A program made the position numbers and the translations under genes. The notes below the pieces were generated by a model. It was not told the DNA's origin. It was given only the letters and a program-made list of their open reading frames with translations, and ran no database searches. A DNA stretch of 64,000 nt from an uncultured Solirubrobacteraceae bacterium. Its GTDB lineage: Bacteria > Actinomycetota > Thermoleophilia > Solirubrobacterales > Solirubrobacteraceae. Numbering within the stretch: the stretch's first letter is position 1; every line of letters starts with the position of its first letter. The DNA lies in the NCBI GenBank assembly GCA_902806175.1, contig CADCVQ010000148.1, positions 47,200 through 111,199 of the forward strand, written 5' to 3'. Below are positions 5,678 through 40,195 of the stretch, one piece after another.

Positions 5678-6504
5678 GTGGGCCTTCCGAGCGAGTCTAG
5701 GTGCCGGAGTCCCGGAACCTTCTCGATCACCTTCGAGATTGATCGAAATTCCCCGAAAAGGTTCAGCGCGAGCAGCAGCAGGAGCGCGATCACCTGCCCA
5801 TCCGTGTCGAGCGTCAGGACGATCCAGAGGCCGGCCAGGCCGCCGACCGCGTTGGAGCCGGTGTCGCCGAGCATCCCCCGCTCGCGCAGGTCAAACCAGC
5901 CGGCTACGAGCACCGGCGCGATGAAGATGCCCAGCCCGGCCAGCGCGGCCGTGTTCTGCGTCGCCAGCGTGAGGCCCAGCCCGAGCAGGACCAGGGCCTT
6001 GACCGAGCGGCCCGGTCGCAGGTCGAGCAGGTTGAAGGCGTTCGTCGCGAGCACGAGCACCGCCGTCGCGAGCAGGAAGTCGGCATCCGAGCCCGGCAGC
6101 GAGGACGCCACGAGCAGGGCCAGCCCGAGCGTGCCACCGGCCTTCAGCAGGCCGGTCGAGAGCGACCCGCCGAGCACGTCCTTGCCGTGGCCGCGCCAGC
6201 CGCGTCCCGCGCCCGACAGCGCGTCGTCGATCAGGCCCAGCAGCGCGATCCCGGGGATGAAGACGACCGCGAAGCCGAGGTTGTCGGGAAAGACGTCGGC
6301 ATCGGTCAGGCGCGCGAGCAGCATCACGGGGATCAGCGCGATCAGCGCCGCCGGGACGACGACGATGCCGATCGGGACCGGCAGGCGGCGACCGCGGTAG
6401 TTCTCGCGCGTGGCGCCGGCCTCGGCGAGCCGGCTGAGCACCAGCGGCGTGAGCGCCCCGGCGACCAGCAGCGAGAAGACGAACGGCAGTGCTTGCACCG
6501 GCAC
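5674..6504 (-). CDS. Polytopic membrane protein, MraY/WecA-like glycosyltransferase family 4
   Basis: 276-aa multi-helix ORF (GTG start). Contains LIDDA and NAFNLLD motifs reminiscent of polyprenyl-phosphate sugar-phosphate transferases. Translationally coupled to pyrG. Confidence 0.6.
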
Positions 6505-6566
6505 AGGAACCTAGCGGGGCGGCCGGACAAAGGGCGTGCCGGCGGCCGCCCGGGTGCCGTTCGCGC

Positions 6567-7430
6567 TCAGCGCGGGCGCCCGACGACCGGCGGCAGCAGC
6601 GCCTGTGCGTCGTCGCGGCGCCCGTACGAGCCCTGGCTGCCGGCCAGCACGAAGACGACCGCCGCGCGCCCGGCGGGCTCGTCGACGTTGTCGACGCTCG
6701 ACATCTCGCGGGCGCGAAACCAGCCGATGCTCGACGGCCGGCTCGCGCGTCGTTCGGTTCCGACCACCGGCACCCCCGTCTGCACGAGGCCGCGGGCGAT
6801 GCCGTCCTGCAGCGCTGCGAGCCGGTCGTCGGCGTCCTCGTCGGCCGGCCGGTCGGGCGAGCGCATGACGATCACGCCGTCGAGGTCGCCGAAGCTCCCG
6901 CTGAGCGACTGCAGCAGCGCCGCGCGCATCCGGCCGACGAGCTTGCCGCCGAGCACCATCTGAATCCCCGCGCGCCTGCCGAGATCGTCGATCAGCGTCG
7001 GGTCGCGCTCGATGTCGGCGTAGCGCGTCCGCCCGGCGCGGCCGGCGACCGTCTGCAGGTCGATGTTCTGACGCACGACGGCGACGAACGCCAGGTCGGC
7101 CCCCGTCGGCTCGAGCGCCTCGCGCACGATGTCCGGCGAGCCGTCGTCGTCGCCCAGCAGCACGAGCCCGATGCGCGCGTCGGGCAGCTGGCCGCCCGTG
7201 AGGATCGGATAGGCGGCGTTGGCGAACTGGCTCTGTTCGCGCACGCGCGCCTGCGCCTCGTCGCGCTCCTGGTCGGCCTTGCGCACGTCGGAGCGCAGCG
7301 AGTCGCGCAGCTCCTCGCGCGCGCCGGAGACGAGCTCCTTGTCGCCGATCGCGACGCCGAGCAGCAGCCCGACGACGAGCGCGATGAAGACGGCTGCCAG
7401 CGACAGCGCGTGGTAGCGGAAGTCGAACAT
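6567..7430 (-). CDS. Copper transporter family protein (MctB / DUF3186-like)
   Basis: 287 aa. The N-terminus MFDFRYHALSLAAVFIALVVGLLLG is typical of the family. It sits beside steA, as Rv1698 does in mycobacteria. Confidence 0.8.
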   Translation of the reverse strand: MFDFRYHALSLAAVFIALVVGLLLGVAIGDKELVSGAREELRDSLRSDVRKADQERDEAQARVREQSQFANAAYPILTGGQLPDARIGLVLLGDDDGSPDIVREALEPTGADLAFVAVVRQNIDLQTVAGRAGRTRYADIERDPTLIDDLGRRAGIQMVLGGKLVGRMRAALLQSLSGSFGDLDGVIVMRSPDRPADEDADDRLAALQDGIARGLVQTGVPVVGTERRASRPSSIGWFRAREMSSVDNVDEPAGRAAVVFVLAGSQGSYGRRDDAQALLPPVVGRPR

Positions 7431-7443
7431 GCGGCGCCTTGAG

Positions 7444-8586
7444 CTACTCGAGCCCGAGGACGACTTCGAGCTTGAGCCACATGAGGTCGGCGACGTCGCG
7501 CAGGGCGGGCGTCAGTGCGACGATCGCCAGCAGGCACAGCAGACCCGCCAGCGCGACGAAGACGAGCGGGCTGCGCCCCGGCAGCGGTCTGTACAGGCGC
7601 GAGACGCCCTTGGCGTCGACGAGGATCTCGCCCAGCCGCAGCCGTGTGAGGAACGTGGAGGCCATCCCGCGCCGGTTCTTGTCGAGGAACTCGACGAGGT
7701 TGAACTGCGACCCGACGGAGACGATCAGCTCAGCGCCCTTCTCGGCGGCGATCAGCATCGCGACGTCCTGGCTCGTGCCCGGGGCCGGCACGAGCTTGAA
7801 CGGCAGCTCGAGTGCCTCGAGGTGCTCGCGGCCGGGCGCGCGTCCGTCGGGATAGGCGTGGACGACGAGCTCGGCGCCGCAGCGCAGCGACGCCTCGCTG
7901 GCGGAGTCCATGTCGCCGACGATCATGTCGGGCTTGAAGCCCTCCTCGAGCAGCGCGTTGGCGCCGCCGTCGACGGCGATGATCCGCGGCCTGACGTCGC
8001 GGATGTACGGCCGCAGGGTGCGCAGGTCCTTCTGGTGATCGACGCCGCGCACGACGATCAGCGCGGGCCGGTCGCGAAAGTCCGTGTCGAAGCGCGGCAG
8101 CTCGATGCGGCCCGACAGCAGCTCGCGCTCCTCGAGCATGTGCTCGATCGTGTTCTTCGCGAACGCCTCCAGCGCGTCGCCGATCTCGCGCCGGCGCTCG
8201 TCGGTGGCGGCGCGCACACTGGCCGGGTCGCGGACCTCGCCTGTCGCGACCTCCTTGGACCCGCGGATGACGCTGCCACCGCGAACGGTGATCGCCTCGC
8301 CGTCCTTGAGCTCCTTGAACAGCCTGTCGTCGGGCAGGTCGACGAGGTGGATGCCGGCCTGGACGAGCAGCAGCGGCCCCATGTTCGGGTAGGCGCCCGT
8401 CGAGGACGGGCTGCAGTTCAGCACCGCCAGGACGCCCGCCGCGATCAGGTCCTCGGCCGACACGCGGTCGAGATCTCTGTGGTCGAGCACGGTGACCGCG
8501 CCGGGTTCGAGCGTTTTGACGAGGAGCTTCGTGCGCTTGCCCAGGCGGACGGGTCCAGAGAGCTCCCGGGCGACGGCGACGGCCAT
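7444..8586 (-). CDS. steA: Putative cytokinetic ring protein SteA
   Basis: 380 aa with a thiamine-pyrophosphokinase-like core (DMIVGDMDS), a C-terminal membrane helix, and conserved recN-steA-mctB neighbourhood. Confidence 0.82.
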   Translation of the reverse strand: MAVAVARELSGPVRLGKRTKLLVKTLEPGAVTVLDHRDLDRVSAEDLIAAGVLAVLNCSPSSTGAYPNMGPLLLVQAGIHLVDLPDDRLFKELKDGEAITVRGGSVIRGSKEVATGEVRDPASVRAATDERRREIGDALEAFAKNTIEHMLEERELLSGRIELPRFDTDFRDRPALIVVRGVDHQKDLRTLRPYIRDVRPRIIAVDGGANALLEEGFKPDMIVGDMDSASEASLRCGAELVVHAYPDGRAPGREHLEALELPFKLVPAPGTSQDVAMLIAAEKGAELIVSVGSQFNLVEFLDKNRRGMASTFLTRLRLGEILVDAKGVSRLYRPLPGRSPLVFVALAGLLCLLAIVALTPALRDVADLMWLKLEVVLGLE

Positions 8587-8694
8587 CGGCGGAGTCTAGA
8601 TGGGCCTGTTAACGGCTTGCGAAGATCTCCGCGAGGCGTTGGTAGCGTGTCCGTCGCTGTGTTCGGAGCGCTCGCAGCGGTCTCGCCGGACCGC

Positions 8695-9681
8695 ATGACC
8701 GACGTGTGCGGCGAGGACCCCGGCTTCATCTGCCGCGTGGTGCTCAACCGCACCGAAGACCGCGAGCTGGCCGAGCTGGCCGACAAGCTCCTGGGCACGA
8801 CGCTGACGATCATCGCGATCCTGCTCGGCGCGCTGCTCGTCAACCGCCTCGTCAAGCGCAGCGTCAAGCGCGGGCTGCGCACGATCCACTCCGGCGCCGT
8901 CCGCGAGCGCCTCGGCGCGATCCGCCGGCGCACGCCGAACGCGCTGCTGGAGACCGACGAGGTCAGCCTGCGCGCCGAGCAGCGCATCAACGCGCTCACG
9001 AGCGTCCTGCGCAGCATCGCGACCGCCGTGATCTTCGTGATCGCCGGCTTCCTGATCCTCGGCGAGGTCGGTCTGAACCTCGCGCCCCTGCTCGCCGGCG
9101 CCGGGATCCTCGGCGTCGCGCTCGGCTTCGGCGCGCAGTCGCTGGTCAAGGACTTCCTGTCGGGCCTGTTCATCCTCGTCGAGGACCAGTTCGGCGTCGG
9201 CGACATCGTCGACCTCGACCAGGAGACATCGGGCACCGTCGAGGCGGTGTCGCTGCGCACGACGCGGCTGCGCTCGGTCGACGGCACGGTCTGGCACGTG
9301 CCCAACGGCGACATCCGCCGCGTCGGCAACAAGAGCCAGCACTGGTCGCGCGCCCTGCTGGACGTCGAGGTCGCCTACGAGACCGACATCGACCACGCCA
9401 AGACGGTCATCAAGCGCGTCGCCGACGAGCTGTGGCACCAGCGCGAGGACATCCTCGAGGAGCCGGAGGTCTGGGGCGTCGAGCGGCTGGGTCCCAACTC
9501 GGTCGTGATCCGGCTGGTGGTCAAGACGCGCCCCGCCGACCAGTACGACGTCAGCCGCGAGCTGCGCCAGCGCCTGAAGGAGACCTTCGAGGCGGAGGGC
9601 ATCGAGATCCCGCTCGCCCAGCAGGTCGTCTGGCAGCGCGGCGCCGCGGCGGCGGAGGGTGCGGGCGACAAGCAGGCGTAG
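8695..9681 (+). CDS. Mechanosensitive ion channel family protein (MscS-like)
   Basis: C-terminal part of the 750-aa track ORF. Contains GILGVALGFGAQSLVKDFLSGLFILVEDQFGVGD and transmembrane helices. ATG at 8695; an in-frame GTG at 8647 is an alternative start. Confidence 0.9.
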   Translation: MTDVCGEDPGFICRVVLNRTEDRELAELADKLLGTTLTIIAILLGALLVNRLVKRSVKRGLRTIHSGAVRERLGAIRRRTPNALLETDEVSLRAEQRINALTSVLRSIATAVIFVIAGFLILGEVGLNLAPLLAGAGILGVALGFGAQSLVKDFLSGLFILVEDQFGVGDIVDLDQETSGTVEAVSLRTTRLRSVDGTVWHVPNGDIRRVGNKSQHWSRALLDVEVAYETDIDHAKTVIKRVADELWHQREDILEEPEVWGVERLGPNSVVIRLVVKTRPADQYDVSRELRQRLKETFEAEGIEIPLAQQVVWQRGAAAAEGAGDKQA

Positions 9682-9860
9682 CGACCGCTACGGCTCCGGC
9701 GCGGCTGACGGAAAGACAGGTATCGGCGCGCGCCACATATTGGGAGGTCTCCCGATGCGTGCGCCTTGCGCTCGCGGCGATCCTCAGTTGTGCAAGCGCC
9801 ATCGCCGGCCATGGAGCAGCAGCGATGCGACACATGCCCAAACAGGGGAGCAGCAACACC

Positions 9861-11297
9861 ATGAACAGGTCAACGATCGCCTTCGACGACGGCACCGCGG
9901 ACAGGGACACGACCACAGCGGTCCAGGCACCGAGCCGCGTCGCGATGTGCAAGCTCATCGCTGCGGCGCTGGCGGCCATGACCATCGTGCTGGTGGCACC
10001 GGCCGGGGCCGGCGCCGCGATGACGTCCTTCAAGCCCGAGGCCCACGGCTTTCAATTCCAGAACAAGTTCAGCGTAAAGGTGCAGCTACGGTTTCCCAAG
10101 CTCGGGCTGAAGTCCATCAACCTCGGCAAGCATGGCTACGGCCTCTGCGGCGGGATGACCTACGCCGCCTTGGACTACTTCCGTGCGGGCAAGCCGATCC
10201 CGCCGGATCTCACGCAGCCGCGGCTGGGATCGCCGCTGTACAAGTACATCTTCCGCCGCCAGCTCGACACGTTGACCCTCGGCACGCTGGGCAAGTTCGC
10301 CACGATGCCGTTTGAGTCCACAACCGACCTTACGCGCCAGTCGCGGCGGGCGTTTCAGAACGTGATCAGAGGCGAGCTCGACCGCGGCCGTCCCGTTGCG
10401 CTGGGCCTGATCAAGACGAAGGGGCTTGACAGCTTCATGACGGGCAACCACCAGGTCTTGGCGATCGGCTACTCCCTGAGGCCCGTCACGATCACCACCA
10501 GGAAGTGCTTCCTCGGCATATGCAAGACGACGCGGCGCCGTGACAACGAGCCGATCATCGCGATCTACGATCCCAACTACCCCAGGCGAATCACCTACCT
10601 CCAGACCAACCACAACATCCAGACGTGGGACGAGGCCGGCAAGCAGTCGTTCACGAGGGTTCGCGGCTACTTTGCCACCCCGTACCGCTTCGCCTCGCCT
10701 CCGGCTCCGCCGCCGCCTCCGCCGCCGCTGTTCAACCCGCCTCCCCCTCCGCCACCGCCACCGCCGCCGCCACCCCCGCCACCGCCGCCGCCCCCGCCTC
10801 CCCCGGGCTCGATCAACACGTTGCTCGGGTTTGACGGCCTGCCGAACCAGACGCAGGTCAGGACCCAGTACCTGGCTTCGCACGGCATCACGTTTGGCAG
10901 GTCGTCGGACTTCAACATCAGCGGGGGAGCGCGCTGCGCGGGCGGCCAGATCAGAGAGCCCGGCATCTCCAGCGGCCCGTCGTTGAGCATCGGGTGCTTC
11001 ATCAACGAGCTCGCATGGGACTTCGGAACGGCGTTCAGGTTTGCCTCTGAGCAGCGCAGCGTGTCCTTCCTGATGCGGCTGAGCGCGCCGAACTCCCCGA
11101 AGACGGCCACCGTGCAAGCGTTCGGCGCCGGCGGCGGGGTGCTCGAGAGCCGCGACGTCACGCTCGGCCCGGGAGCGCCGGTCCTCGTCTCCTTCGCGCG
11201 CCCGAGCTCGCAGATCGCGGTCGTCAGGATCGCGGGCGGAGACACCTCTCAGCTCGAGGTCATGATCGACGATCTCTCCTACTCGCGCGATCCGTGA
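9861..11297 (+). CDS. Secreted two-domain protein: putative papain-fold cysteine peptidase domain, polyproline linker, unknown beta-rich C-terminal domain
   Basis: ATG at 9861 is preceded by AGGGGAG ten nucleotides upstream. Hydrophobic signal/anchor is MCKLIAAALAAMTIVLVAPAGAGAAM. Candidate Cys-His-Asp residues lie in GYGLCGGMTYAALDYF, GNHQVLAIGY and AIYDPNYP. A Pro run is followed by a domain of about 165 aa. Confidence 0.75.
   Translation: MNRSTIAFDDGTADRDTTTAVQAPSRVAMCKLIAAALAAMTIVLVAPAGAGAAMTSFKPEAHGFQFQNKFSVKVQLRFPKLGLKSINLGKHGYGLCGGMTYAALDYFRAGKPIPPDLTQPRLGSPLYKYIFRRQLDTLTLGTLGKFATMPFESTTDLTRQSRRAFQNVIRGELDRGRPVALGLIKTKGLDSFMTGNHQVLAIGYSLRPVTITTRKCFLGICKTTRRRDNEPIIAIYDPNYPRRITYLQTNHNIQTWDEAGKQSFTRVRGYFATPYRFASPPAPPPPPPPLFNPPPPPPPPPPPPPPPPPPPPPPPGSINTLLGFDGLPNQTQVRTQYLASHGITFGRSSDFNISGGARCAGGQIREPGISSGPSLSIGCFINELAWDFGTAFRFASEQRSVSFLMRLSAPNSPKTATVQAFGAGGGVLESRDVTLGPGAPVLVSFARPSSQIAVVRIAGGDTSQLEVMIDDLSYSRDP
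10698..10805 (+). repeat. (CCN)n tract encoding PPAPPPPPPPLFN followed by P x23
   Basis: Codon-by-codon reading gives 23 consecutive Pro codons at 10737-10805 (mixed CCG/CCA/CCC/CCT). A shorter run lies at 10698-10727. Confidence 0.92.
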
Positions 11298-11321
11298 CCG
11301 CTTGACGGTCGTTCTCTGACT

Positions 11322-11349
11322 CGGCGGTGCAGCTGCGGCTGCACCGCCG
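11322..11349. terminator. Stem-loop between convergent genes (polyPro protein and recN)
   Basis: CGGCGGTGCAGC-tgcg-GCTGCACCGCCG, a perfect 12-bp stem with a 4-nt loop. There is no strong U-tract. Confidence 0.55.
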
Positions 11350-11392
11350 GTCGTTCCCGGGGGGTTCAGACCTGCGGCGGCGACGATCGCGC

Positions 11393-13045
11393 TCAGGCCG
11401 CCCGCAACAGCTCCTCAGCATGCCTGCGCGCCGGCCCGTCCACGTCATCGGCACCGAGCATCCGCACGAGCTCGCGCACGACCTCGTCGTCGCGCAGCTC
11501 GCTCACCGTCGTCTGCGCCGGCGTCCGGCTCGTGTCCTTGGCGATCGCGAAGTGCCGCGCGGCGAGCGAGGCGACCTGCGGCAGGTGGGTGATGCAGATG
11601 ACCTGGCGATCGGCGGCGAGGTCGCGCAGCTGGTCGCCGACGGCGCGGGCGGTCTGGCCGCCGATGCCCGCGTCGACCTCGTCGAAGACGAGCGTCGCGC
11701 CGCCGCCCGCGGCGGCAACGCCCATCAGCGCGAGCATGACGCGCGAGAGCTCACCGCCGGAGGCGGTCTCGCGCAGCGGGCCGGCCGGCACGCCCGGGTT
11801 CGGCGCGATCAGGAACTCGACGCTGTCGGCGCCGGCCGGCCCCGGCGCGCGGGGCTCGAGCGAGACCTCGAACGCGGCGCCCTTCATCGCAAGCTCATCC
11901 AGGCGCGCGCGGACGGCGCGGGCGAGCTTCGGCCCTGCCGCGGCGCGCGCCTTGCGCAGTGCGTCGCTGCCGGCCTGCAGCGCGGCGCGCGCTTCTTTCA
12001 GGCGCGTCGCGGCCGCCGCGATCGCCACCTCGGCGGCGCCCAGCTCCGCGCGGCGCGCGCGGCACACCTCGGCGTGCGCGAGCACCGCGGCGATCGTGCC
12101 GCCGTGCTTTCGCTCGAGCCGCTCGAGCACGCTGAGGCGCTCCTCGACTGCGTCCAGGCGCCCCGGCTCGGCGCCGAGGCCGTCGGCGTACGCGCGCAGC
12201 TCGCGGGCGAGGTCCGCGGTCTCGTCGGCCAATGCGCGCCAGCGCTCCCCGAGCGTGTCGAGCGCCGGATCGATCCCGCGCGCGCCGAGCAAGCCGCGCT
12301 CCGCGCTCGCCAGCAGGCTCGCAATTCCCGTCTCGTCGGCGGCCGCCGCCTCGGCAGCGGTCAGCGCTGCCGTGCCGAGCGCCTCGACGTGACGCAGGCG
12401 GGCGCGCTCGGCGCGCAGCGCCAGCGCCTCCTCCTCGCTGGGCTCGACGGCATCGATCTCCGCGAGCTCGAAGTCGAGCAGGTCAAGCTCGCGCTCCCTC
12501 GCCCCAGCCAACGCCCGCAGCTGCGCGAGCGCCGCCTCGGCGTCGCGGGCCGCCGCGTACGCCGCTGCCACCGTCGCGCGCCGGGCGAGCTGCGCCTCGC
12601 CGCAGAAGCCGTCGAGGATGTCGAGCTGCGCTCCGGCGAGGGCGAGCTTGCGGTGCTCGTGCTGGCCGTAGAACGTGATCAGCGACTCGGCGAGCTCGCG
12701 CAGGTCGGTCACCGTCGCCGAGCGGCCGTTGACGAGCGCCCGCGTGCGCCCGTCCGCGCCGATGCGGCGGGCCAGCACGACCTCCGTCGCATCGGCCGCC
12801 AGCCGCTCGCCGAGCTCGCCGCGCAGCGCGTCGGGCAGCTCGAAGACCCCCTCGACATACGCCTCCGCCGCCCCGGGCCGCACGATGCCCGGCTTCGCGC
12901 GGCCGCCCAGCAGCAGGTCGAGCGCGTGCGCGAGCACGGTCTTGCCCGCGCCCGTCTCCCCCGTCAGGACGTTCAGGCCGGCCGCCAGGCGCAGCTCGGC
13001 CCGCTCGATCAGCAGGAGGTTCTCGACGCGCAGCTCGCAGAGCAT
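11393..13045 (-). CDS. recN: DNA repair protein RecN
   Basis: 550 aa. Has an N-terminal Walker A (LNVLTGETGAGKT), a long coiled-coil middle region, and a C-terminal SGGELSRVMLAL signature plus a Walker B-like FDEVDAGIGG. Confidence 0.95.
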   Translation of the reverse strand: MLCELRVENLLLIERAELRLAAGLNVLTGETGAGKTVLAHALDLLLGGRAKPGIVRPGAAEAYVEGVFELPDALRGELGERLAADATEVVLARRIGADGRTRALVNGRSATVTDLRELAESLITFYGQHEHRKLALAGAQLDILDGFCGEAQLARRATVAAAYAAARDAEAALAQLRALAGARERELDLLDFELAEIDAVEPSEEEALALRAERARLRHVEALGTAALTAAEAAAADETGIASLLASAERGLLGARGIDPALDTLGERWRALADETADLARELRAYADGLGAEPGRLDAVEERLSVLERLERKHGGTIAAVLAHAEVCRARRAELGAAEVAIAAAATRLKEARAALQAGSDALRKARAAAGPKLARAVRARLDELAMKGAAFEVSLEPRAPGPAGADSVEFLIAPNPGVPAGPLRETASGGELSRVMLALMGVAAAGGGATLVFDEVDAGIGGQTARAVGDQLRDLAADRQVICITHLPQVASLAARHFAIAKDTSRTPAQTTVSELRDDEVVRELVRMLGADDVDGPARRHAEELLRAA

Positions 13046-32211: not shown

Positions 32212-32670
32212 ATGGCCAACCCCCTGACGGTCATCATCCCGATGAAGCAGGACGCGGACATCGCGAAGCTGGCGGGAATCCTTCACGCCCAGCAGGATGC
32301 GATCGACGCGGCGCGCAGTGGCATCGCGACGCTTCATTACACATTTTTCCTGATCCTCGATCACTCATCGCCCAACCTGCAGCTTCAACCCGGCAGCTCC
32401 GGCCCGTTCAGCCTCGCCGTGATCACCATCTTCGACGGTGAACTGGACGACTACATCGCGGCCGTCGTCAAGGATCTCGGGCCGGCCTTCTCCCTGCTGC
32501 TGTCCTACAGCGCCGACGGACAGCATCTCCTCCCGGTGGCCGATCACTACGACGAGTTCGCCGCCTACATCCGCGGCAACGACGCTTCGCAGCACCCGCC
32601 CAACGACCAGCTGCGCTTCTGGGGCGCCTACCCGGACACCGCTCAGCAGATCGTCGGCGACACCAGCTGA
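32212..32670 (+). CDS. Uncharacterised small protein (152 aa), divergent member of the family also found at 35581-36129 and 36126-36719
   Basis: ATG at 32212 is preceded by GAAAGGAAC. It shares four ordered motifs with the two operon proteins (see findings). Confidence 0.65.
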   Translation: MANPLTVIIPMKQDADIAKLAGILHAQQDAIDAARSGIATLHYTFFLILDHSSPNLQLQPGSSGPFSLAVITIFDGELDDYIAAVVKDLGPAFSLLLSYSADGQHLLPVADHYDEFAAYIRGNDASQHPPNDQLRFWGAYPDTAQQIVGDTS

Positions 32671-32688
32671 GCCGAGCGGCAGCAGCGA

Positions 32689-33153
32689 ATGTCCGCGCGC
32701 CACACCCGGCCGTTCCCCACGCGGGAGATCCACCACGCGATCGACATCGACGCCCCGCCCGCGGCTGTCTGGGCGGTTCTGGCCGACACCGCGGCCTACG
32801 GCGAGTGGAACCCGTTCATACCCCGGCTCGAGGGCGACTGGCGGGTCGGCGCCAAACTCTCTGCGCTCGTCGCGACGCCCGGCGGCGGCCGGCCGAGGAC
32901 CTTCGAGCAGACCGTGCTCGCGGTGCAACCCGGCCGCGAGCTGCGCTGGATCGTGCGCGTGCTCGTGCCCGGCCTGCTCGACGGCGTGCACAGCTTCGGA
33001 CTGCAGCCGCTGCCCGCCGGCGGCACGCGCTTCACGCAGGTCGAGCGCTTCCGCGGCCTGCTCGTACGCCTGCTACGCCGGCAGATCGACAAGACGCAGC
33101 TCGGCATGGAGCAGATGAACGGGGCCCTCAAGCGGCGCGTCGAAGGCCGGTAA
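32689..33153 (+). CDS. SRPBCC domain-containing protein
   Basis: 154 aa. IDIDAPPAAVWAVLADTAAYGEWNPF is a typical SRPBCC/polyketide-cyclase-like N-terminus. It starts 18 nt after the preceding gene. Confidence 0.8.
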   Translation: MSARHTRPFPTREIHHAIDIDAPPAAVWAVLADTAAYGEWNPFIPRLEGDWRVGAKLSALVATPGGGRPRTFEQTVLAVQPGRELRWIVRVLVPGLLDGVHSFGLQPLPAGGTRFTQVERFRGLLVRLLRRQIDKTQLGMEQMNGALKRRVEGR

Positions 33154-33174
33154 AGCCCGCTCCGGCGATTCGCG

Positions 33175-34158
33175 CTACTCCGGCAGGATCGCCGGCTTGG
33201 TCTCACGCGACCGGCGCCGGTGTGACTCCCAGTAGGCCTCCGAGCGGAAGTGCAGCAGCGGGTCGTCGGAAAGCTCGATCCCGGGCGGCATCCGCGTCGG
33301 GTCGAAGACCCACTCGGCGACTGCCTCGGAGTCCTCGTGCAGGCGCTCGATCACGATCTCGCCCGCGACGACCTGCGGGCGGCTCTCGGGCCACAGCACC
33401 CGGAGGTCGTCGATCTCGTCGCCCTCCTGCGCGAGCTGGAAGACGAGCTTCCACGCCACCGGCGCCTGCTCGACGCGCTGCTTGATCTCGCTGACGACGT
33501 ACTGCGGCGGCAGCAGCGTGTCGTCCTTCGGGTCGATGTTGGCGACCCCCGCCACCGGCATGAAGCGGAAGCGGAAGGCCTGCCGGCGGCCGTCGGCGTC
33601 GACGAGGTAGTAGGAGTGAAAGCCGTTGAAGCGCGCGGTCGCGAAGCTCTCCGGCGGCGCGAGCGTCGCCGCCGCCTTGATGCCCGGCAGCGCGCGCGGG
33701 ATGCGCGGCGCGAGGAAGGCGAGCATCCGCAGCGGGTGCGGCGAGCCGCCCGGCAGCGCGGCACGCGTGTTGACCACCATCGCGTGGAAGTCGTCGGGCG
33801 TGCGCGGCGGGAACGCCGCGAGGTTCAGCGCCGTCCACGACGTGTGGTCGCCGGACGGCAGGGCGAAGCGCACCCCCATCCCGAGCGGGTTGCCGCGCTT
33901 GCCGTCGACGCGGTCGGCGAGGTAGGGGCTCGAGCCGCCGTTGGACAGGCGCACGACGACGTCGATGCGGCCGCTGTGGAAGAGCTCTGCCGTCGACAGC
34001 GCGCCGATCTCGGGGGTCGGCGTGAAGTGCCCGTGGAATGCGATCCCGCGGGCGTGCCCGCGCTTGTGGCCGGGCACGTTGTTCATGTGCTTCTCCATCG
34101 CCCCGAGCACCTTCTTGACGCGGGCGGGCCCTCCGAGCTTGTGTGGGCTCTCGCTCAT
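33175..34158 (-). CDS. Catalase-related (small-subunit clade) haem peroxidase
   Basis: 327 aa. Distal-His region is KRGHARGIAFHGHF and the proximal-Tyr region is HFRSEAYWESHRRR. It is much shorter than a monofunctional catalase. GGAGGTG ribosome-binding site. Confidence 0.85.
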   Translation of the reverse strand: MSESPHKLGGPARVKKVLGAMEKHMNNVPGHKRGHARGIAFHGHFTPTPEIGALSTAELFHSGRIDVVVRLSNGGSSPYLADRVDGKRGNPLGMGVRFALPSGDHTSWTALNLAAFPPRTPDDFHAMVVNTRAALPGGSPHPLRMLAFLAPRIPRALPGIKAAATLAPPESFATARFNGFHSYYLVDADGRRQAFRFRFMPVAGVANIDPKDDTLLPPQYVVSEIKQRVEQAPVAWKLVFQLAQEGDEIDDLRVLWPESRPQVVAGEIVIERLHEDSEAVAEWVFDPTRMPPGIELSDDPLLHFRSEAYWESHRRRSRETKPAILPE

Positions 34159-34195
34159 CGCGCCACCTCCATCTCGCTGGACATCGTGATGCTCA

Positions 34196-35584
34196 TCAGC
34201 CCGCCGTCCCGTCCACGAGCGCCCGCAGCGCGGTCATCCCCGGGACGAACAGGTACTCGCCGCCGCGCGTGACGACGAACGCCTCCTGCGGCGAGACGAA
34301 GAACGGCTTCTCGCCCTGGATCGTCATCTTGCCGCTGCCTGACGGTTCGCCCAGCAAGAAGTCCTTGTCGGTGCCCAGGCCGAAGATGTTGCCGTCGTTG
34401 ATCCACGGCGTCTGGACGCCCTCGAACTGGCGGAAGATGCTCGCCTGGAAGCTCACGAACACGAGGCCGCGCTCGGCGCCGTCGTCCTCCAGGGCGCCCT
34501 CGGGCAGCACCTTGCCGTAGGGCATCCCGCGACGGATCATGCGGTGGCGCAGGCTCAGCTTGCCGGCCGGGTCCAGCGCGTCGCGCGGATTGCAGCGGCG
34601 GATGTGCGCGCCCAGCGGGCAGCGCCGGCCGTCGAGGTCGTTGCGGTAGCGAAAGTCGTTGGCACCCGGGGCGGCGGGATCGAACTCGGGATCCGGGCCG
34701 TGCGGGTGCGTCTGGACCGGCGTGCCGTCCTGCCAGCGGCCGACGACCTTGGCGGCGAGCTTGCGCGCATCGCCGTAGGGGTAGCGCGCGGCGGCCGCGG
34801 CGATCGTGCGCCGCCACAGCGCGACGTCCTGGTGCAGCTTGCGCCAGACCATGTACGTGCCGTTGCGCGCCATCGCGCCCGTGGGCGCCGGCGGCAGCCG
34901 CCGAGCGCGATCGACGCTCGTGTCCTCGTCGGGATAGCCGAGGACGAACTCGCCGGGCGCCAGCGGGCGCCAGCGTCCGTCGCGCTCGGGAACGCCGCCA
35001 CCGGGCGCCTTGTCCTCCGTCGCTCCGGCGATCGCCGGCTGCGCGAAGCCGTCGGCGAAGCCGAAGTGCTCGCGCGCGCCGTGCAGCAGCTCGGCGTCCT
35101 GCTGGTAGAGGACGCTGACCCCGCCGGTGTCCTTCATCGCCGCCTGCATCTTGGCCAGCGCACGCCGATGGTCGGCCGTCGTCTGCGCGTTGATCGTCAG
35201 CAGCACGTGGGCGTCGCCGGTGCCCAGCCCCTGGTCCCATTTCGGCGGCGCGCTCGGGCCGGTGTCGCCGAGCAGCTCCGCGCGCGCCGCCATCCCCTGG
35301 CGAAACTCGTGCGAGAAGCTGCCGATCGTCTCCTGCGAGACGCCGAGCGCGGCCAGGCCGCTCGCCGTCAGCGCGACGTTCAGCGTCGTCAGCGGCTTCT
35401 CGCTCCACGGCGCGGCGTTCGTGACGTGGTCGACGACGCCGGCGAGCCATGCCCGCGCCTGCTCTGGCTCGCAGTCGATCCGCACGAACGCATAGGACGC
35501 GCAGTCATAGGAGTTGCCGTAGGCGCGCAGGATGTCGCCCTGGATGTCCGACAGCTCGAGCGCCGGCAGCGCCGCGCGGATCAT
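34196..35584 (-). CDS. Dyp-type peroxidase
   Basis: Start at MIRAALPALELSDIQGDIL (ATG at 35584), overlapping the upstream stop as ATGA. Has the GXXDG motif EHFGFADGFAQP, the proximal-His region GAHIRRCNPRD, and GLVFVSFQASIFRQFE. Confidence 0.9.
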   Translation of the reverse strand: MIRAALPALELSDIQGDILRAYGNSYDCASYAFVRIDCEPEQARAWLAGVVDHVTNAAPWSEKPLTTLNVALTASGLAALGVSQETIGSFSHEFRQGMAARAELLGDTGPSAPPKWDQGLGTGDAHVLLTINAQTTADHRRALAKMQAAMKDTGGVSVLYQQDAELLHGAREHFGFADGFAQPAIAGATEDKAPGGGVPERDGRWRPLAPGEFVLGYPDEDTSVDRARRLPPAPTGAMARNGTYMVWRKLHQDVALWRRTIAAAAARYPYGDARKLAAKVVGRWQDGTPVQTHPHGPDPEFDPAAPGANDFRYRNDLDGRRCPLGAHIRRCNPRDALDPAGKLSLRHRMIRRGMPYGKVLPEGALEDDGAERGLVFVSFQASIFRQFEGVQTPWINDGNIFGLGTDKDFLLGEPSGSGKMTIQGEKPFFVSPQEAFVVTRGGEYLFVPGMTALRALVDGTAG

Positions 35585-36129
35585 GCTGCGCCGAACTGCT
35601 CGAGGAACTCCTTGCGGCGCTCCGCCGGCTTCATCTCCTGCGCGCGGACGGCGAAGTCGATCAGCCGCGCGCGCTTGTCCAGCGCGGTCTTGATCTGCTT
35701 GACCGACGCGTTGGGGTAGGCCGCGAACGCGACGCCCGAGTCGACCTGGTTGCGGTGCAGGTAGGCCTTCAGCGCCACGCCCTCGGCGGGCTGCGGGCAG
35801 CCGACGCAGTGACCCCAGACCTCCGCCGCCTCGACCGCCATCAGCGCGACGAGCTCGTGCAGGTAGCTGTCGACGTCGCCGTCGAGGTTGCTCGTGAACA
35901 GCAGAAACTGCGTGCCCAGCGGGTCGCGCAGGTCCGTGCCCGGCGCGACCGGCATGTCCGGCACGACGATCCAGCGCGCCATGTGCGTGCGCGGCAGCTT
36001 GGCGAGCGGGCTCCCCGCGCCGTTGTCGAGGCCGTCGAGGTAGGCCCGCAGCGCCCCCTCCTCGCCCGGCTTGATCGGCGTCCAGATCATGAGCGAGTAC
36101 GTCTTGCCGGCGATGTTCGGAGATCTCAT
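35581..36129 (-). CDS. Uncharacterised protein (182 aa), family member 2
   Basis: ATG at 36129 overlaps the upstream stop and its own stop overlaps the Dyp ATG, both as ATGA. Coding-like composition. Confidence 0.7.
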   Translation of the reverse strand: MRSPNIAGKTYSLMIWTPIKPGEEGALRAYLDGLDNGAGSPLAKLPRTHMARWIVVPDMPVAPGTDLRDPLGTQFLLFTSNLDGDVDSYLHELVALMAVEAAEVWGHCVGCPQPAEGVALKAYLHRNQVDSGVAFAAYPNASVKQIKTALDKRARLIDFAVRAQEMKPAERRKEFLEQFGAA

Positions 36130-36719
36130 AGGTAGCGCTGCGCGTCCTCGATGAAGGCGTCCCAGGCCGCGTCGAACTGCTCCTCGGGGAGGTGGCGGAC
36201 ACGGTGGGCGAACATCTCCAGGCGCTCCTCGAGCTCCAGCGCCGAGCGCACGATCGTCACCGTCGCGTCCGGATAGGCGCAGTGGTAGTGGCTCGCGTCG
36301 ACCTCGTGGACCTTGAAGAACGCCTGAAACGGCCCCGCCGGCAGCGGGCCGGGAAAGCGCCGCGAGCTGCCCCAGAAGGTGTACATGCCGGTCGTCAGCA
36401 CGCGCACCGAGGAGTCGATGTACTGCGCCCAGCTGCCGTTGAAGCTGACCTCGAAGAACAGGTGCGGGTAGCGCAGCCGGCGCACGGTCTGCGGGGGCCC
36501 GTTGTAGGGCAGCTCGCGGATCAGCGACCAGCTCGCGAAGCTGATGAACGACAGCTTGTCCATCGCCTCCAGCGACTTCGGGGCCGCCCGCGTGAGCGTG
36601 AACATGAACGGCATCCAGAAGCGGCCCCACGGCTTTTGCGTCGTGAAGAGCGTGATCGAGGTCGTGCGGCCGCAGACGTTGCTCGGCGGCGCGTCGGGCG
36701 AGACCGCGGGCAGGTTCAT
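36126..36719 (-). CDS. Uncharacterised protein (197 aa), family member 3
   Basis: ATG at 36719 overlaps the hydrolase stop as ATGA. Rich in aromatic residues, with a coding-like composition. Confidence 0.7.
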   Translation of the reverse strand: MNLPAVSPDAPPSNVCGRTTSITLFTTQKPWGRFWMPFMFTLTRAAPKSLEAMDKLSFISFASWSLIRELPYNGPPQTVRRLRYPHLFFEVSFNGSWAQYIDSSVRVLTTGMYTFWGSSRRFPGPLPAGPFQAFFKVHEVDASHYHCAYPDATVTIVRSALELEERLEMFAHRVRHLPEEQFDAAWDAFIEDAQRYL

Positions 36720-37759
36720 GCGTCCCTCGCGAGCTCGCCGAGGATGATCGGGTGCCAGTCGCGGCCCGCGTGCTCGCCGACGAACACGTCGAGGTGCCCG
36801 TAGCCGGGCACGATGTGCATCGTGTGGCGCCCCGGGTCGTGCTTCTCGAACCACTCGAACGTGCGCATCTGACTCTCGGGCAGAAAGCAGTTGTTGCGCC
36901 CGCCGGTGATGAACGAGAAGCGCGCGTCGGTCAGCGGCGCCTGGGCGACGAAGCTCTCGGGCAGCTCGGGCCGCCCCTCGACGCTGACGAGGTGGCCGGC
37001 GCGGACGCATTGCGCGATCTGCTTGAAGAACGTCAGCGGGGCGGGGCCGAACTCGCCCTTCGTCCACTCGTGCGTCGCGGGGCTGAGCTGCTCGTGCGTC
37101 CACAGCGTCGGGTTGCCGGCGCCGAACATGAAGCTCGACACCTTGCAGACGCCGTTGTCGCAGGCGCGGCGCGAGAGCTTGCAGTACGCGGTCAGCGCCT
37201 TGGGCAGCAGCCAGGGCGCGCCCCGCTCGCCCCAGCGCGGATCGAGGTAGCCCAGCAGCCGCGACACCGGCGGCACGATGTAGTCGAGCTTGAGCTTCGC
37301 CACCTTCGTCACGACCGGATGCAGCGAGACCGCGCTCGCGACGACGGTGCGCACCTCGGGCACGAGGCCCGCACAGGCGGCCATCATGAAGCTCGTCGAG
37401 CCCTGGCAGTGCGTGATCGCCTGGATCGAGTCCGCGCCGGTCAGCTCGACGACCTTCTTGACGGCGACGGGGTGGTCGAGCACCGCGCCCTGGTCGAGCG
37501 TCCACGTGTTGTTGGGCACGTCCATGCTCGCCCGCCACGTCTCCATGAAGACGTCGTAGCCCTCGTCGACGAGCGCCTCGATCAGCGTGCGCGGGGTCGG
37601 CGGGCGCCAGATCTCCGTGCGCACGCCGACGCCGTGGACGAGCAGCACCGGCCCCTTCGTCGGCTCCTTCGGGCCGCGGACGCGGATGAGGTTGCAGGGA
37701 ACCCCGTCGGCGACGTCGAGCGCGATGAGCTCGTCGGTGTGCGCGGCGGCGGTCGTCAC
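36716..37759 (-). CDS. Alpha/beta-fold hydrolase (Cys at the nucleophile-elbow position)
   Basis: 347 aa. Has an oxyanion-like VLLVHGVG, an elbow ITHCQGST (small-x-Cys-x-small), and a C-terminal catalytic-His region, GYGHLDVF. Confidence 0.8.
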   Translation of the reverse strand: MTTAAAHTDELIALDVADGVPCNLIRVRGPKEPTKGPVLLVHGVGVRTEIWRPPTPRTLIEALVDEGYDVFMETWRASMDVPNNTWTLDQGAVLDHPVAVKKVVELTGADSIQAITHCQGSTSFMMAACAGLVPEVRTVVASAVSLHPVVTKVAKLKLDYIVPPVSRLLGYLDPRWGERGAPWLLPKALTAYCKLSRRACDNGVCKVSSFMFGAGNPTLWTHEQLSPATHEWTKGEFGPAPLTFFKQIAQCVRAGHLVSVEGRPELPESFVAQAPLTDARFSFITGGRNNCFLPESQMRTFEWFEKHDPGRHTMHIVPGYGHLDVFVGEHAGRDWHPIILGELARDA

Positions 37760-37777
37760 GCCTGGGCCACCGCGTCG

Positions 37778-40195
37778 TCAGTCCTTCTTGGAGCCGGGGC
37801 CGAACGCGTCCCAGAGGCTCCCGGCGAAGAGCCCGCCGAAGCGCCCGATCGCATCGACGCGGTGCGCCGGATCGACACGGAACGTCGTCATCTGGACCGC
37901 GAAGTCCTGCGGCAGGACGTGCAGGATCCCGCTCGCGACGACGTCGGCCGCGTCGTCGCCGTCGCCGGGCTCGACGTGTCCGGCGAGGATCCGCGTGAAG
38001 AGCGTCGTCGTGTCGCTCCAGACGTCGAAGCCGCGATCGTCCTTGACCTCCTTGTAGCCGTTGAGCGTGATCGGATGACCCTCGCCGTCGGCGATCAGCA
38101 GGCGGTACTTCATGAGCTTGCGCTCCTCGCCGTCCTCGTCGGCGTCGACGAAGAGGTTGAACCAGCCCTTCTGCACCTCGAGCCTGCCGCCGAGCGCGTC
38201 GCACTGGACGTGGCCGGTGATCGTGCCCGGATGCTGCGAATCCTCGATGAAGCGCTCGATGTCGTCCATCAGCACCGTCACGTGGAACATGCAGGCCGTC
38301 TTTGACTTCTTGCCCTGGCGAAAGCCCTTGTCGTAGTCGTCCTCGCCGAAGGTGATGAAGCCACGCATCTTCTCGGTGAAGCGCAGCGACGCGGGGTGCT
38401 CGCTGGCGCTCGGAGCGGCGGCGGCGGTCGGGCCACCCTCTTCATCGGCCGGCGGGGGTGGCGGGGGTGCGGTCACGGTGTGTCCCTTCATGTCTTCGAG
38501 GATGGCGTCGGCGAAGCGGTCGGCGAGGCCGGCGATCGTGAGGCTCGGGTTGGGGCCGACTGGCCCGGGCATGACCGAGCCGTCGGCGATGTGCAGGCCG
38601 GGGTGGTTGTAGACGCGCCCGAAGGGGTCGACGACGCCCTCCTGATCGTCACGCCCCATCGGGCAGCCGCCGAGCGCGTGCACGGTCACGACCCGGCTGA
38701 GCAGCCAGATCGGGTTGTCCAGGAAGGTCCCGCCCAGCTCGTCGGCAACGTCCTTGGAGATGTCGCGCACGCGCTCGAAGTACTCCTTGGACGACCCGTT
38801 CTTCTTCCAGTCGATCGCCAGGCCGCCGTCGCGCAGCGACATGATCCCCTCGGGGACGTCGCGGCCCATGCCCAGCAGCGGCAGGAAGCCCGAGGACTCG
38901 CTGCAGTCGCCCAGCAGCTCTGAGACATCGCCCCCGACGTCGGAATCCGCGTGCGTGAACAGACCGCGCACGACCTTCGGCAGGTTGCGGCGCTGCTCGA
39001 GCAGCGAGGACGGCGTGTCGATGAGCTGCAGCATCCACGAGACGAACTCTGGCTGGCCGGCGTCCTCGAGGTAGAAGCCGCGCTGTCCGCGCGCGCCGCC
39101 GTCGCTCTCGTCGGGCACGCGGATCGCGCTCGTGATGACCGGCGCGTGGGCGGAGTCCAGGACGTGTGGCACCTTCTTTCCCTCGACCTCGCTCATGCAG
39201 TTGCGCGCGAAGGTCAGCAGGTCGCCGTTGCCGCCGAAGCGCGAGCCGAGCATCGGGCTCAGGCCGGGGAACGCGGCGCGGTTCTTCAGCAGCAGGTACG
39301 TCGTGCCGAGCGTGCCGGCCGACAGGATCAGGCGATCGCAGGTGATCGCGTGGCGATCGAGGCGCGCGGTGTCGGTCTTCGTCCCCTCCGCCTCGGCGTC
39401 GTGGATGACGTAGTCGACCTGGTAGCCGCCACGGTCGCGCGCCTCGAAGGAGCGCACCTCGTGGCGCGTGCGGATGTCGGCGCCGGCGTGCCATGCCGCT
39501 GTGATGTACGTGTAGTCCAGCGAGTTCTTGGAGCCGTGGTTGCAGCCCAGGTCGCACTCCCCCGTGAGCTTGCAGGTCAGGCGCGTGCGGCCGTGGATGT
39601 TGGGCCGCTCCTCCTTGATCGGCTCGCCGACCATCGGCGGGTCGCCGTCGTTGGCGAACGTCACCGCGAGGTTGACCAGGCGCCAGTCCAGCCCGAGCTT
39701 CTGCGCCGCGTCGCGGAAGGCGAGCGTCTTGAGCGTCTTGTCGTAGGGGTCCTGGTCGAGCGGGTACTTCTGGACGTTCATCATCCGCTCGACGCGGTCG
39801 TAGTGCGGGTCCAGGTCGGCGCGCGTGACGGGCCAGTACTCGTAGCCGTCCTTCCACGAGCCGTTGCCGGGCTCCTCGCGCACGAACCACTCCTCGTCCT
39901 TGCGCAGCAGGACGTTGGCGTAGATCAGCGAGCCGCCGCCGAGGCCGCTGGCGACGATCGCGTCGATGTTGTCGAAGCTCCAGAGGTTGAACATCCCGTG
40001 CAGCCCCTCGCTGGGATCCCAGAACTGGCGCTTCATCCCCAGCGGCGAGCGCGGGAAGGAGTTGGGCGGGAAGGGCTTTCCGCGTTCGAGCAGGCAGACG
40101 CTGTGGCCGGCCTCGGCCAGCCGGTATGCCGTCACGGACCCGCCGAATCCGGATCCGACGACGACGGCGTCGAAATGTTCGGAAGCTGGACTCAC
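37778..40195 (-). CDS. GMC family oxidoreductase (cholesterol-oxidase-like) with a C-terminal extension of about 210 aa
   Basis: 805 aa (GTG start, GAGGTAGG upstream). FAD-binding fold is FDAVVVGSGFGGSV, with further GMC motifs GGGSLIYAN and HALGGCPMG. A Pro-rich linker, APPPPPPADEEGG, is followed by an extra domain. Confidence 0.9.
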   Translation of the reverse strand: MSPASEHFDAVVVGSGFGGSVTAYRLAEAGHSVCLLERGKPFPPNSFPRSPLGMKRQFWDPSEGLHGMFNLWSFDNIDAIVASGLGGGSLIYANVLLRKDEEWFVREEPGNGSWKDGYEYWPVTRADLDPHYDRVERMMNVQKYPLDQDPYDKTLKTLAFRDAAQKLGLDWRLVNLAVTFANDGDPPMVGEPIKEERPNIHGRTRLTCKLTGECDLGCNHGSKNSLDYTYITAAWHAGADIRTRHEVRSFEARDRGGYQVDYVIHDAEAEGTKTDTARLDRHAITCDRLILSAGTLGTTYLLLKNRAAFPGLSPMLGSRFGGNGDLLTFARNCMSEVEGKKVPHVLDSAHAPVITSAIRVPDESDGGARGQRGFYLEDAGQPEFVSWMLQLIDTPSSLLEQRRNLPKVVRGLFTHADSDVGGDVSELLGDCSESSGFLPLLGMGRDVPEGIMSLRDGGLAIDWKKNGSSKEYFERVRDISKDVADELGGTFLDNPIWLLSRVVTVHALGGCPMGRDDQEGVVDPFGRVYNHPGLHIADGSVMPGPVGPNPSLTIAGLADRFADAILEDMKGHTVTAPPPPPPADEEGGPTAAAAPSASEHPASLRFTEKMRGFITFGEDDYDKGFRQGKKSKTACMFHVTVLMDDIERFIEDSQHPGTITGHVQCDALGGRLEVQKGWFNLFVDADEDGEERKLMKYRLLIADGEGHPITLNGYKEVKDDRGFDVWSDTTTLFTRILAGHVEPGDGDDAADVVASGILHVLPQDFAVQMTTFRVDPAHRVDAIGRFGGLFAGSLWDAFGPGSKKD

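Follow-up and report, generated by a model that had tools for sequence, protein, structure and literature searches.

An unannotated family of predicted alpha+beta-barrel proteins encoded beside class-V DyP-type peroxidases, with three members in a stretch of Solirubrobacteraceae DNA

We analyzed 64,000 nucleotides of DNA (the window) from an uncultured Solirubrobacteraceae bacterium (contig CADCVQ010000148.1, positions 47,200 to 111,199), focusing on three small proteins, here called A, B, and C, that are encoded around the gene for a DyP-type peroxidase. The G+C content is ~71% across the region, and the closest database proteins are from Solirubrobacteraceae metagenome-assembled genomes. The minus strand carries a tight row of six genes that encode, in order, a GMC oxidase, an alpha/beta-hydrolase, protein C (36126-36719; 197 amino acids [aa]), protein B (35581-36129; 182 aa), a class-V (C/D-type) DyP peroxidase (34196-35584; 462 aa), and a small catalase-related haem protein (33175-34158; 327 aa), which closes the operon. 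The gene for protein A (32212-32670; 152 aa) lies on the plus strand and converges on the operon from its 3' side, ~1.5 kb from the DyP gene. All three open reading frames (ORFs) are present at the positions and lengths given in a sequence-only reading of the region, which had proposed that they are divergent paralogues. That two of the copies are translationally coupled to the peroxidase gene, as also proposed, is borne out by ATGA stop-start overlaps at the C/B and B/DyP junctions; the hydrolase/C junction has the same overlap, and 37 base pairs (bp) separate the DyP stop from the start of the catalase-like gene. A scan of the whole window detected exactly three family members and one DyP, with no fourth member and no second DyP.

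A, B, and C are distant relatives within one large unnamed family. B and C align over their full lengths by BLASTP (E 5e-15, 26% identity), and their families match in a profile-profile comparison (hhalign) with 98.5% probability (E 1.6e-15). Pairwise BLASTP is marginal for A and B (E 0.016) and gives an E value of 0.29 for A and C, and the A and B families match by profile with 96% probability (E 1.6e-9, 126 columns). The family alignments used held 13, 20, and 16 sequences. Direct profile-profile comparison of A with C was not significant (E 0.013, probability 3%), so the membership of A rests on B and the wider family. A hidden Markov model (HMM) of the family, constructed from 242 domain instances from other organisms only, scores A at 51.7 bits, B at 202.8 bits, and C at 175.5 bits. 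Shuffled sequences, the control named in the sequence-only reading, fell far below these values (best of 3000 shuffles, 1000 per protein, 9.6 bits), and the three-paralogue proposal is thus confirmed by pairwise, profile, and shuffle tests. The four motifs said to occur in the same order fall into register when the three families are aligned with MAFFT. In all three proteins the order is beta1 (T.P), HFARW on beta2, (S)NFDG..Y after beta3, and AYP after beta4, and residues G84, P112, A137, and Y138 (B numbering; the DG and AYP motifs) are invariant in all 39 sequences of the joint alignment. The description of the genes as old paralogues is also supported, as the split between C-like and B-like forms is present in every phylum sampled.

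The family is large and has escaped annotation. Pfam and NCBIfam searches returned no family match for A, B, or C or for 76 diverse members, and sequence and profile searches of the PDB returned nothing for B or for the two-domain profile. Source databases name all members 'hypothetical protein'; only the DyP fusions are named otherwise, after their DyP part. An exhaustive HMMER profile search of 1.84 billion cluster representatives identified 3795 clusters (50% identity) at E values up to 1e-3, and 1998 at E values up to 1e-10. We mapped domain architectures on 148 of the 150 best matches (the other two were already in hand). Two near-complete copies of the domain occur in 101 of the 148 representatives, long fusions included. 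Tandem two-domain proteins of ~330-530 aa are the majority type, and others are single domains of ~150-250 aa. Longer proteins have DyP after the two-domain unit (860-964 aa; Pfam DyP_N and Dyp_perox_C), a catalase-related domain ahead of it (734-864 aa), or a short catalase-related domain behind it, in which the distal His and proximal Tyr motifs align (556-643 aa). One 562-aa two-domain protein (P0385) ends in two predicted hydrophobic segments that look membrane spanning (residues ~430-500), and some family members may therefore be anchored in the membrane.

The two-domain proteins provide a reading of the gene pair in the window. The consensus of their N-terminal domain, LSFIHFARW...FESNFNG...GFPGP, agrees with C, and that of their C-terminal domain, TPI.PG...SPFA...THFARW...FDG...C.G.P, agrees with B. 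Correspondingly, C scores 174 bits on the N-domain HMM versus 102 bits on the C-domain HMM, and B scores 202 bits on the C-domain HMM versus 139 bits on the N-domain HMM. Because the N-domain carries the C signature and the C-domain carries the B signature, C followed by B corresponds to the split form of one two-domain protein. By these sequence signatures, we assign C and B as the two halves of a conserved two-domain protein, encoded as separate, translationally coupled genes. At most loci the C-like and B-like units are separate ORFs with short ordinary spacers. We considered and rejected read-through or selenocysteine insertion between C-like and B-like ORFs that lie in the same frame. TAG, TGA, and TAA all occur as the intervening stop, the spacers are ordinary, and the downstream ORFs start with ATG, so these are ordinary two-gene arrangements.

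The family is linked to DyP by genomic position. Loci were found with two family motifs, and not with DyP, in a scan of a single genome for each GTDB species, which yielded 356 relatives. In 78 of the best 80 genome loci among these, the next gene on the same strand, ~0-120 bp downstream, encodes a DyP homologue (E 1e-44 to 1e-259); in the other two, the contigs end inside or just after the B-like gene. The gene order C-like, B-like, DyP is almost invariable. The loci cover Actinomycetota, Acidobacteriota, Gemmatimonadota, Nitrospirota, Dormibacterota, and Alphaproteobacteria, and include Acidimicrobiales, Solirubrobacterales, Mycobacteriales, Pseudonocardiaceae, Emcibacter, and many Acidobacteriota. 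At one locus (L007), a second DyP homologue occurs on the opposite strand ~1.6 kb upstream of the C-like/B-like/DyP module (4981-6370, minus strand); the match is split over two ORFs and the gene may be frameshifted.

A reverse survey started from DyP and covered 15 annotated plasmid or chromid loci of cultured bacteria. The family is encoded just upstream of DyP, or fused to it, in 12 of the 15. These 12 are from Deinococcus radiodurans, Granulicella tundricola, Rhodococcus koreensis, a Streptomyces, Sinorhizobium, Nostoc, Sphingobium, Brucella anthropi, Methylobacterium, and Acinetobacter lwoffii, together with Rhizobium sp. CC1099 (WP_283074239.1; 974 aa) and Novosphingobium aromaticivorans, in both of which the protein is a fusion. 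The N. aromaticivorans protein on pNL2 (WP_011907039.1; locus L100, 199-4530) is a 1443-aa 'Dyp-type peroxidase domain-containing protein' with two family domains followed by DyP, and the ~430 N-terminal aa ahead of the family domains matched none of the profiles used. In D. radiodurans the order is WP_051618841.1, the structurally characterized peroxidase DrDyP, and the catalase-like protein DR_A0146. WP_051618841.1 (243 aa; encoded upstream of DR_A0145) is a family member (E 8.8e-15), and our literature search found no publication that mentions it. Nor did we find a description of the family in the literature searched on DyP gene context, catalase-related proteins, DR_A0144, WhiE-ORFI, and neighborhood analyses. 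Pfam (2025) and NCBIfam (June 2026) have no annotation for the family, for the logic of its two domains, or for its nearly obligate association with class-V DyPs, although the fold superfamily is known.

Fusions extend the link to a third protein. Within single chains we found the family-family-DyP arrangement, the catalase-like domain on either the N- or the C-terminal side of the pair, and DyP with the catalase-like domain. The last of these is suggested by four loci, three from Acidimicrobiales and one from an unclassified actinomycetotan, in which DyP and catalase-related matches fall in one open frame (L005, 7103-9910; L006, 4562-7219; L010, 9154-11688; L035, 311-3616). A catalase-related gene was detected with a profile of catalase-related sequences at 13 of 92 loci, and at one further locus scanned later. 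The sequence-only reading had offered accessory subunits as one role for these proteins, and this idea now has strong comparative support, both from the DyP genes downstream and from the fusions to DyP and to catalase-related proteins. Relatives of A occur in similar settings: a homologue with 44% identity (P0133) is encoded directly upstream of a DyP (locus L003), and another with 61% identity is convergent with a catalase-related gene (L093), as in the window.

At four loci, from D. radiodurans (L084), Sphingobium cloacae (L090), B. anthropi (L091), and A. lwoffii (L096), the trio of family, DyP, and catalase-like genes is flanked by genes for a TetR regulator and for fatty-acid enzymes (3-hydroxyacyl-CoA dehydrogenase and acyl-CoA thioesterase), which hints at a lipid-derived substrate. 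In Sinorhizobium chiapasense (L088, 405-1634), the family gene ahead of DyP is itself preceded by hemA, which encodes 5-aminolevulinate synthase and lies ~1.1 kb away, and DyP is followed by a gene for a NIPSNAP protein, another alpha+beta barrel.

B carries the sequence RTHMARW. Its His49 and Arg52, which belong to the HFARW motif of beta2, occupy the only columns that do not vary among 76 two-domain sequences. These residues are each conserved in 100% of C-terminal domains (the type to which B belongs), in 71% and 82%, respectively, of N-terminal domains, and in 95% and 93% of single-domain members. Protein C of the window has ISFASW at this point, with Ser in both the His and the Arg positions, a substitution that is invariant throughout the C family. 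A retains the His and has Phe in the Arg position; members of the A family with the ARF form of the motif keep the Arg, including the one adjacent to DyP. The pattern of residues suggests one essential site per pair, located in the B-like half.

Structure prediction places B and the C+B pair in a known superfamily. An AlphaFold2 model of B alone (predicted local distance difference test score [pLDDT] 84.7) has a beta-alpha-beta-beta-alpha...beta order and long C-terminal helices. Foldseek searches with this model retrieved ABM, Dabb, muconolactone-isomerase-like, and hydroxynitrile-lyase barrels (E ~1e-2, probability up to 1.0). C and B concatenated, modeled with an alignment of 75 natural fusions, formed a compact two-domain body (pLDDT 92.7; predicted template modeling score [pTM] 0.91), and the beta-alpha-beta-beta-alpha-beta unit is found in the B model and in both halves of the C+B model. 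The closest Foldseek matches of the concatenated model were WhiE-ORFI, a two-domain ABM/SchA-like protein (E 6.5e-7), and the decarboxylase Abx(+)O (E 1.4e-5), followed by sulfur oxygenase reductase and CT0912; all of the best PDB matches have template modeling (TM) scores <0.4. DyP and chlorite dismutase matched weakly (E 0.012-0.04). We therefore describe C+B, as modeled, as a tandem ferredoxin-like alpha+beta barrel that is nearest to ABM/SchA-like proteins and weakly DyP-like. Both B and C+B show the features of the dimeric alpha+beta barrel superfamily, and the ferredoxin-like alpha+beta fold guessed at in the sequence-only reading was right.

Comparison with characterized systems shows both likenesses and differences. 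In ABM/SchA-like proteins (WhiE-ORFI, 9lmn; Abx(+)O, 9ltx; the single-domain 4dn9 and 3gz7), ferredoxin-like beta-alpha-beta units are paired into an alpha+beta barrel, as here, and WhiE-ORFI has two units in one chain, like the two-domain proteins of the family. However, TM scores to these proteins are only 0.34-0.38, and the ABM and SchA/CurD-like Pfam models have no match to A, B, or C at E values up to 1 or to the 76 diverse members at E values up to 0.01. The family is further set apart by its long extra C-terminal helices, its own motifs (HFARW, SNFDG, and AYP), and its strict link to DyP, whereas 9lmn and 9ltx are tied to polyketides by their PDB titles. Sulfur oxygenase reductase (2cb2 and 6m35) and CT0912 (3gn6) also combine two ferredoxin-like repeats in one chain (Foldseek E 1e-4 to 1e-3, probability 0.97-1.0), but have TM scores of ~0.3, no common motif, and an unrelated genomic context. 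The DyP/chlorite dismutase/EfeB proteins likewise have two ferredoxin-like domains with the functional site in the C-terminal one, and they are neighbors or fusion partners of the family; in contrast to them, the family has no profile-profile similarity, Foldseek TM scores of only 0.21-0.24, and no GXXDG motif apparent in alignments.

Two further systems are comparable in organization rather than in fold. In encapsulin-DyP cargo systems and in EfeUOB, DyP function depends on dedicated proteins encoded by neighboring genes, and the DyPs are of other classes (B-type cargo and A-type EfeB). The partner folds differ from those described here, and the new family accompanies cytoplasmic class-V/C-type DyPs with no targeting peptide or transporter. 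In corals and cyanobacteria, a lipoxygenase is fused to a catalase-related allene oxide synthase, for which it makes the substrate. There too, a small catalase-related protein is coupled to its partner by fusion or operon, but in our case the partner is DyP plus a barrel pair, which is not known to form hydroperoxides.

The DyP gene product of the window matches Pfam DyP_N and Dyp_perox_C and TIGR01413 above the cut-offs and has the catalytic residues. Its closest solved structure is DrDyP (8re3; E 2.7e-75), with which its GFADG (GXXDG) motif, the AHIRR proximal His, and the IRRG distal Arg align; the roles of these residues are taken from the DrDyP study (PMC10820274). In the same study, recombinant DrDyP alone was inactive at physiological pH with a six-coordinate low-spin haem, the haem was located in the larger C-terminal domain, and the authors suggested that other proteins govern activity in vivo. 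The catalase-related protein matches Pfam Catalase (PF00199; E 3e-19, 69.8 bits versus a cut-off of 25) and has the core with distal His and proximal Tyr expected of catalase-related proteins of ~320-390 aa; these motifs align with those of other family-linked catalase-like proteins. Its closest PDB entries are 3e4w and 3e4y (320 aa; E 1.2e-32), the former being a small catalase-related protein of Mycobacterium avium that is reported to favor organic hydroperoxides. Among the catalase-like proteins discussed here, lack of catalase activity is documented only for DR_A0146 of D. radiodurans (PMC6300522).

The remaining genes of the operon are lineage-specific additions. The first encodes a GMC, cholesterol-oxidase-like flavoprotein (37778-40195, minus strand; 805 aa; GMC_oxred_N/C, NF058674) whose best PDB matches are cholesterol oxidases. 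Residues ~575-805 form a ~230-aa C-terminal extension, after a Pro/Ala-rich linker, with no Pfam, NCBIfam, or PDB sequence match. The second encodes the alpha/beta-hydrolase (36716-37759, minus strand; 347 aa; Abhydrolase_1), with weak PHA-synthase-like matches. Both are conserved in a relative (locus L001) in which the whole six-gene row (33175-40195 of the window, minus strand) recurs at 5957-12887, with a B protein that is 65% identical. In both genomes the row occupies the same chromosomal place, between the aroQ and Xaa-Pro peptidase genes and efp-nusB. On the plus strand of the window, A is followed after 19 bp by a gene for an SRPBCC, polyketide-cyclase-like protein (32689-33153; 154 aa; Pfam Polyketide_cyc2, E 1.7e-16). 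Both genes converge on the operon end, and the SRPBCC gene stops 22 bp short of the catalase-like gene. The relative has genes for OsmC and YjbR in place of these two, and the pairing of A with SRPBCC was not seen beside A homologues in the contigs examined (L003, L093, and L094). The GMC oxidase, the hydrolase, and the SRPBCC protein were considered as general partners of the family and rejected: phmmer homologues of the first two were found only in near relatives, plus one other GMC, and there were none for SRPBCC.

On balance, we think it somewhat probable, from gene order and domain fusions, that C and B together are a dedicated partner of the class-V (C-type) DyP and, in many lineages, also of the catalase-related haem protein, with A as a third, more divergent single-domain copy. 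C and B would form a 1:1 heterodimer that binds DyP, plus the catalase-like protein where present. The heterodimer would supply one functional site, the His/Arg pocket of the B domain, which could bind or transform the physiological substrate or modulate the haem enzyme. The unit would then be not a stand-alone DyP but a multi-subunit system for peroxide-dependent oxidation. Physical association of the barrel pair with DyP is, by the same comparative evidence, the most likely arrangement.

Several observations weigh against this interpretation. Tight synteny and fusions also fit consecutive enzymes of a pathway that form no stable complex. The pTM of 0.91 comes from an artificial single chain guided by natural fusions, so a heterodimer of the split proteins is something that we only infer. 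DrDyP, like other C-type DyPs, can fold and take up haem in the absence of a family partner. Three of the 15 loci in the reverse survey (a Streptomyces, a Ralstonia, and an Acaryochloris) lack the family; their DyPs are at most ~32% identical to that of the window, and so not every class-V DyP needs the partner. A has only 13 close relatives, lacks the Arg, and is encoded on the other strand, and its role may differ.

Alternatively, the pair could itself be an enzyme, a cofactor-independent oxygenase, decarboxylase, or isomerase of the ABM/SchA-like kind that acts before or after DyP in one pathway and is not a stable subunit, for example, by making an organic hydroperoxide or quinone for the haem enzymes. 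The best structural matches are such enzymes (ABM, WhiE-ORFI, Abx(+)O, and sulfur oxygenase reductase), but TM scores to them reach only 0.29-0.38, and the ABM and SchA Pfam models do not match at the sequence level. The invariant His/Arg pair resembles a site for catalysis or carboxylate binding, 3e4w is the structure nearest to the catalase-related partner, and lipid-metabolism genes recur nearby (3-hydroxyacyl-CoA dehydrogenase, thioesterase, TetR, and lipase or hydrolase), all of which would suit a separate enzyme. Fusion to two haem proteins, in both orders, nevertheless speaks for physical coupling no less than for sequential chemistry, and we judge this alternative rather unlikely.

It is less probable still that the pair binds haem or porphyrin. 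In that case it would either store or chaperone the cofactor for loading into DyP and the catalase-like protein, or itself be a third haem protein, of the chlorite dismutase/DyP/EfeB architecture, with the cofactor only in its C-terminal domain. The restriction of the invariant His and Arg to the B-like domain, with N-terminal domains often lacking them, resembles the asymmetry of DyP; the His could ligate iron and the Arg could bind a propionate. However, the two residues are three positions apart on one beta-strand and so should face opposite sides. Both fusion partners are haem b enzymes, but a permanent fusion of chaperone and client would be unusual, and recombinant DrDyP came haem bound (PMC10820274), so loading seems not to need the partner. 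The hemA gene near the Sinorhizobium family gene and the weak Foldseek matches to DyP and chlorite dismutase are points in favor of haem binding; the absence of sequence similarity to the haem-binding barrels IsdG, HemQ, Cld, and DyP counts against it. The suggestion in the sequence-only reading that A, B, and C are degenerate DyP-like half-domains was not supported, and we regard it as very improbable. The proteins adjoin a DyP and have the broad ferredoxin-like fold class in common with DyP domains (Foldseek; PMC10820274). Nevertheless, comparison by hhalign with an alignment of 76 neighboring DyPs gave probabilities of 0.07-0.5% for each family alignment, the combined alignment, and the two-domain alignment; the DyP HMM matches only the true DyP parts of fusion proteins; and Foldseek ranks DyP far below ABM/SchA-like proteins and sulfur oxygenase reductase repeats. 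At the sensitivity available, a DyP-derived origin is effectively excluded.

Extending the interpretation of C and B as a dedicated DyP partner, we tentatively propose, as a possibility rather than an expectation, that class-V DyPs in general are the haem component of a multi-subunit system. The obligatory second part would be the His/Arg barrel pair, often with a catalase-like protein as the third, and the pair would bind the true physiological substrate or switch the DyP haem out of its inactive six-coordinate state into an active one. If true, this would account for the inactivity of isolated enzymes such as DrDyP at physiological pH, and for the failure so far to find a natural substrate for C-type DyPs.

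Papers from 2024 (including PMC10820274) still describe what bacterial DyPs do physiologically, above all those of the C-type, as unknown. The partner family reported here is large, spans multiple phyla with many soil bacteria among its carriers, is unannotated, and almost always adjoins these DyPs. For curators, it provides a new domain family with a context-based annotation, and DyP, the catalase-like protein, and the barrel pair can be viewed as a three-part module. Some of the organisms that carry the family, among D. radiodurans, G. tundricola, R. koreensis, A. lwoffii, N. aromaticivorans, and Nostoc, are genetically tractable. In D. radiodurans, the partner adjoins a DyP with a solved crystal structure, making the question accessible to direct experiment. 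Overall, the family is probably an overlooked component of the enzyme system of one class of DyP.

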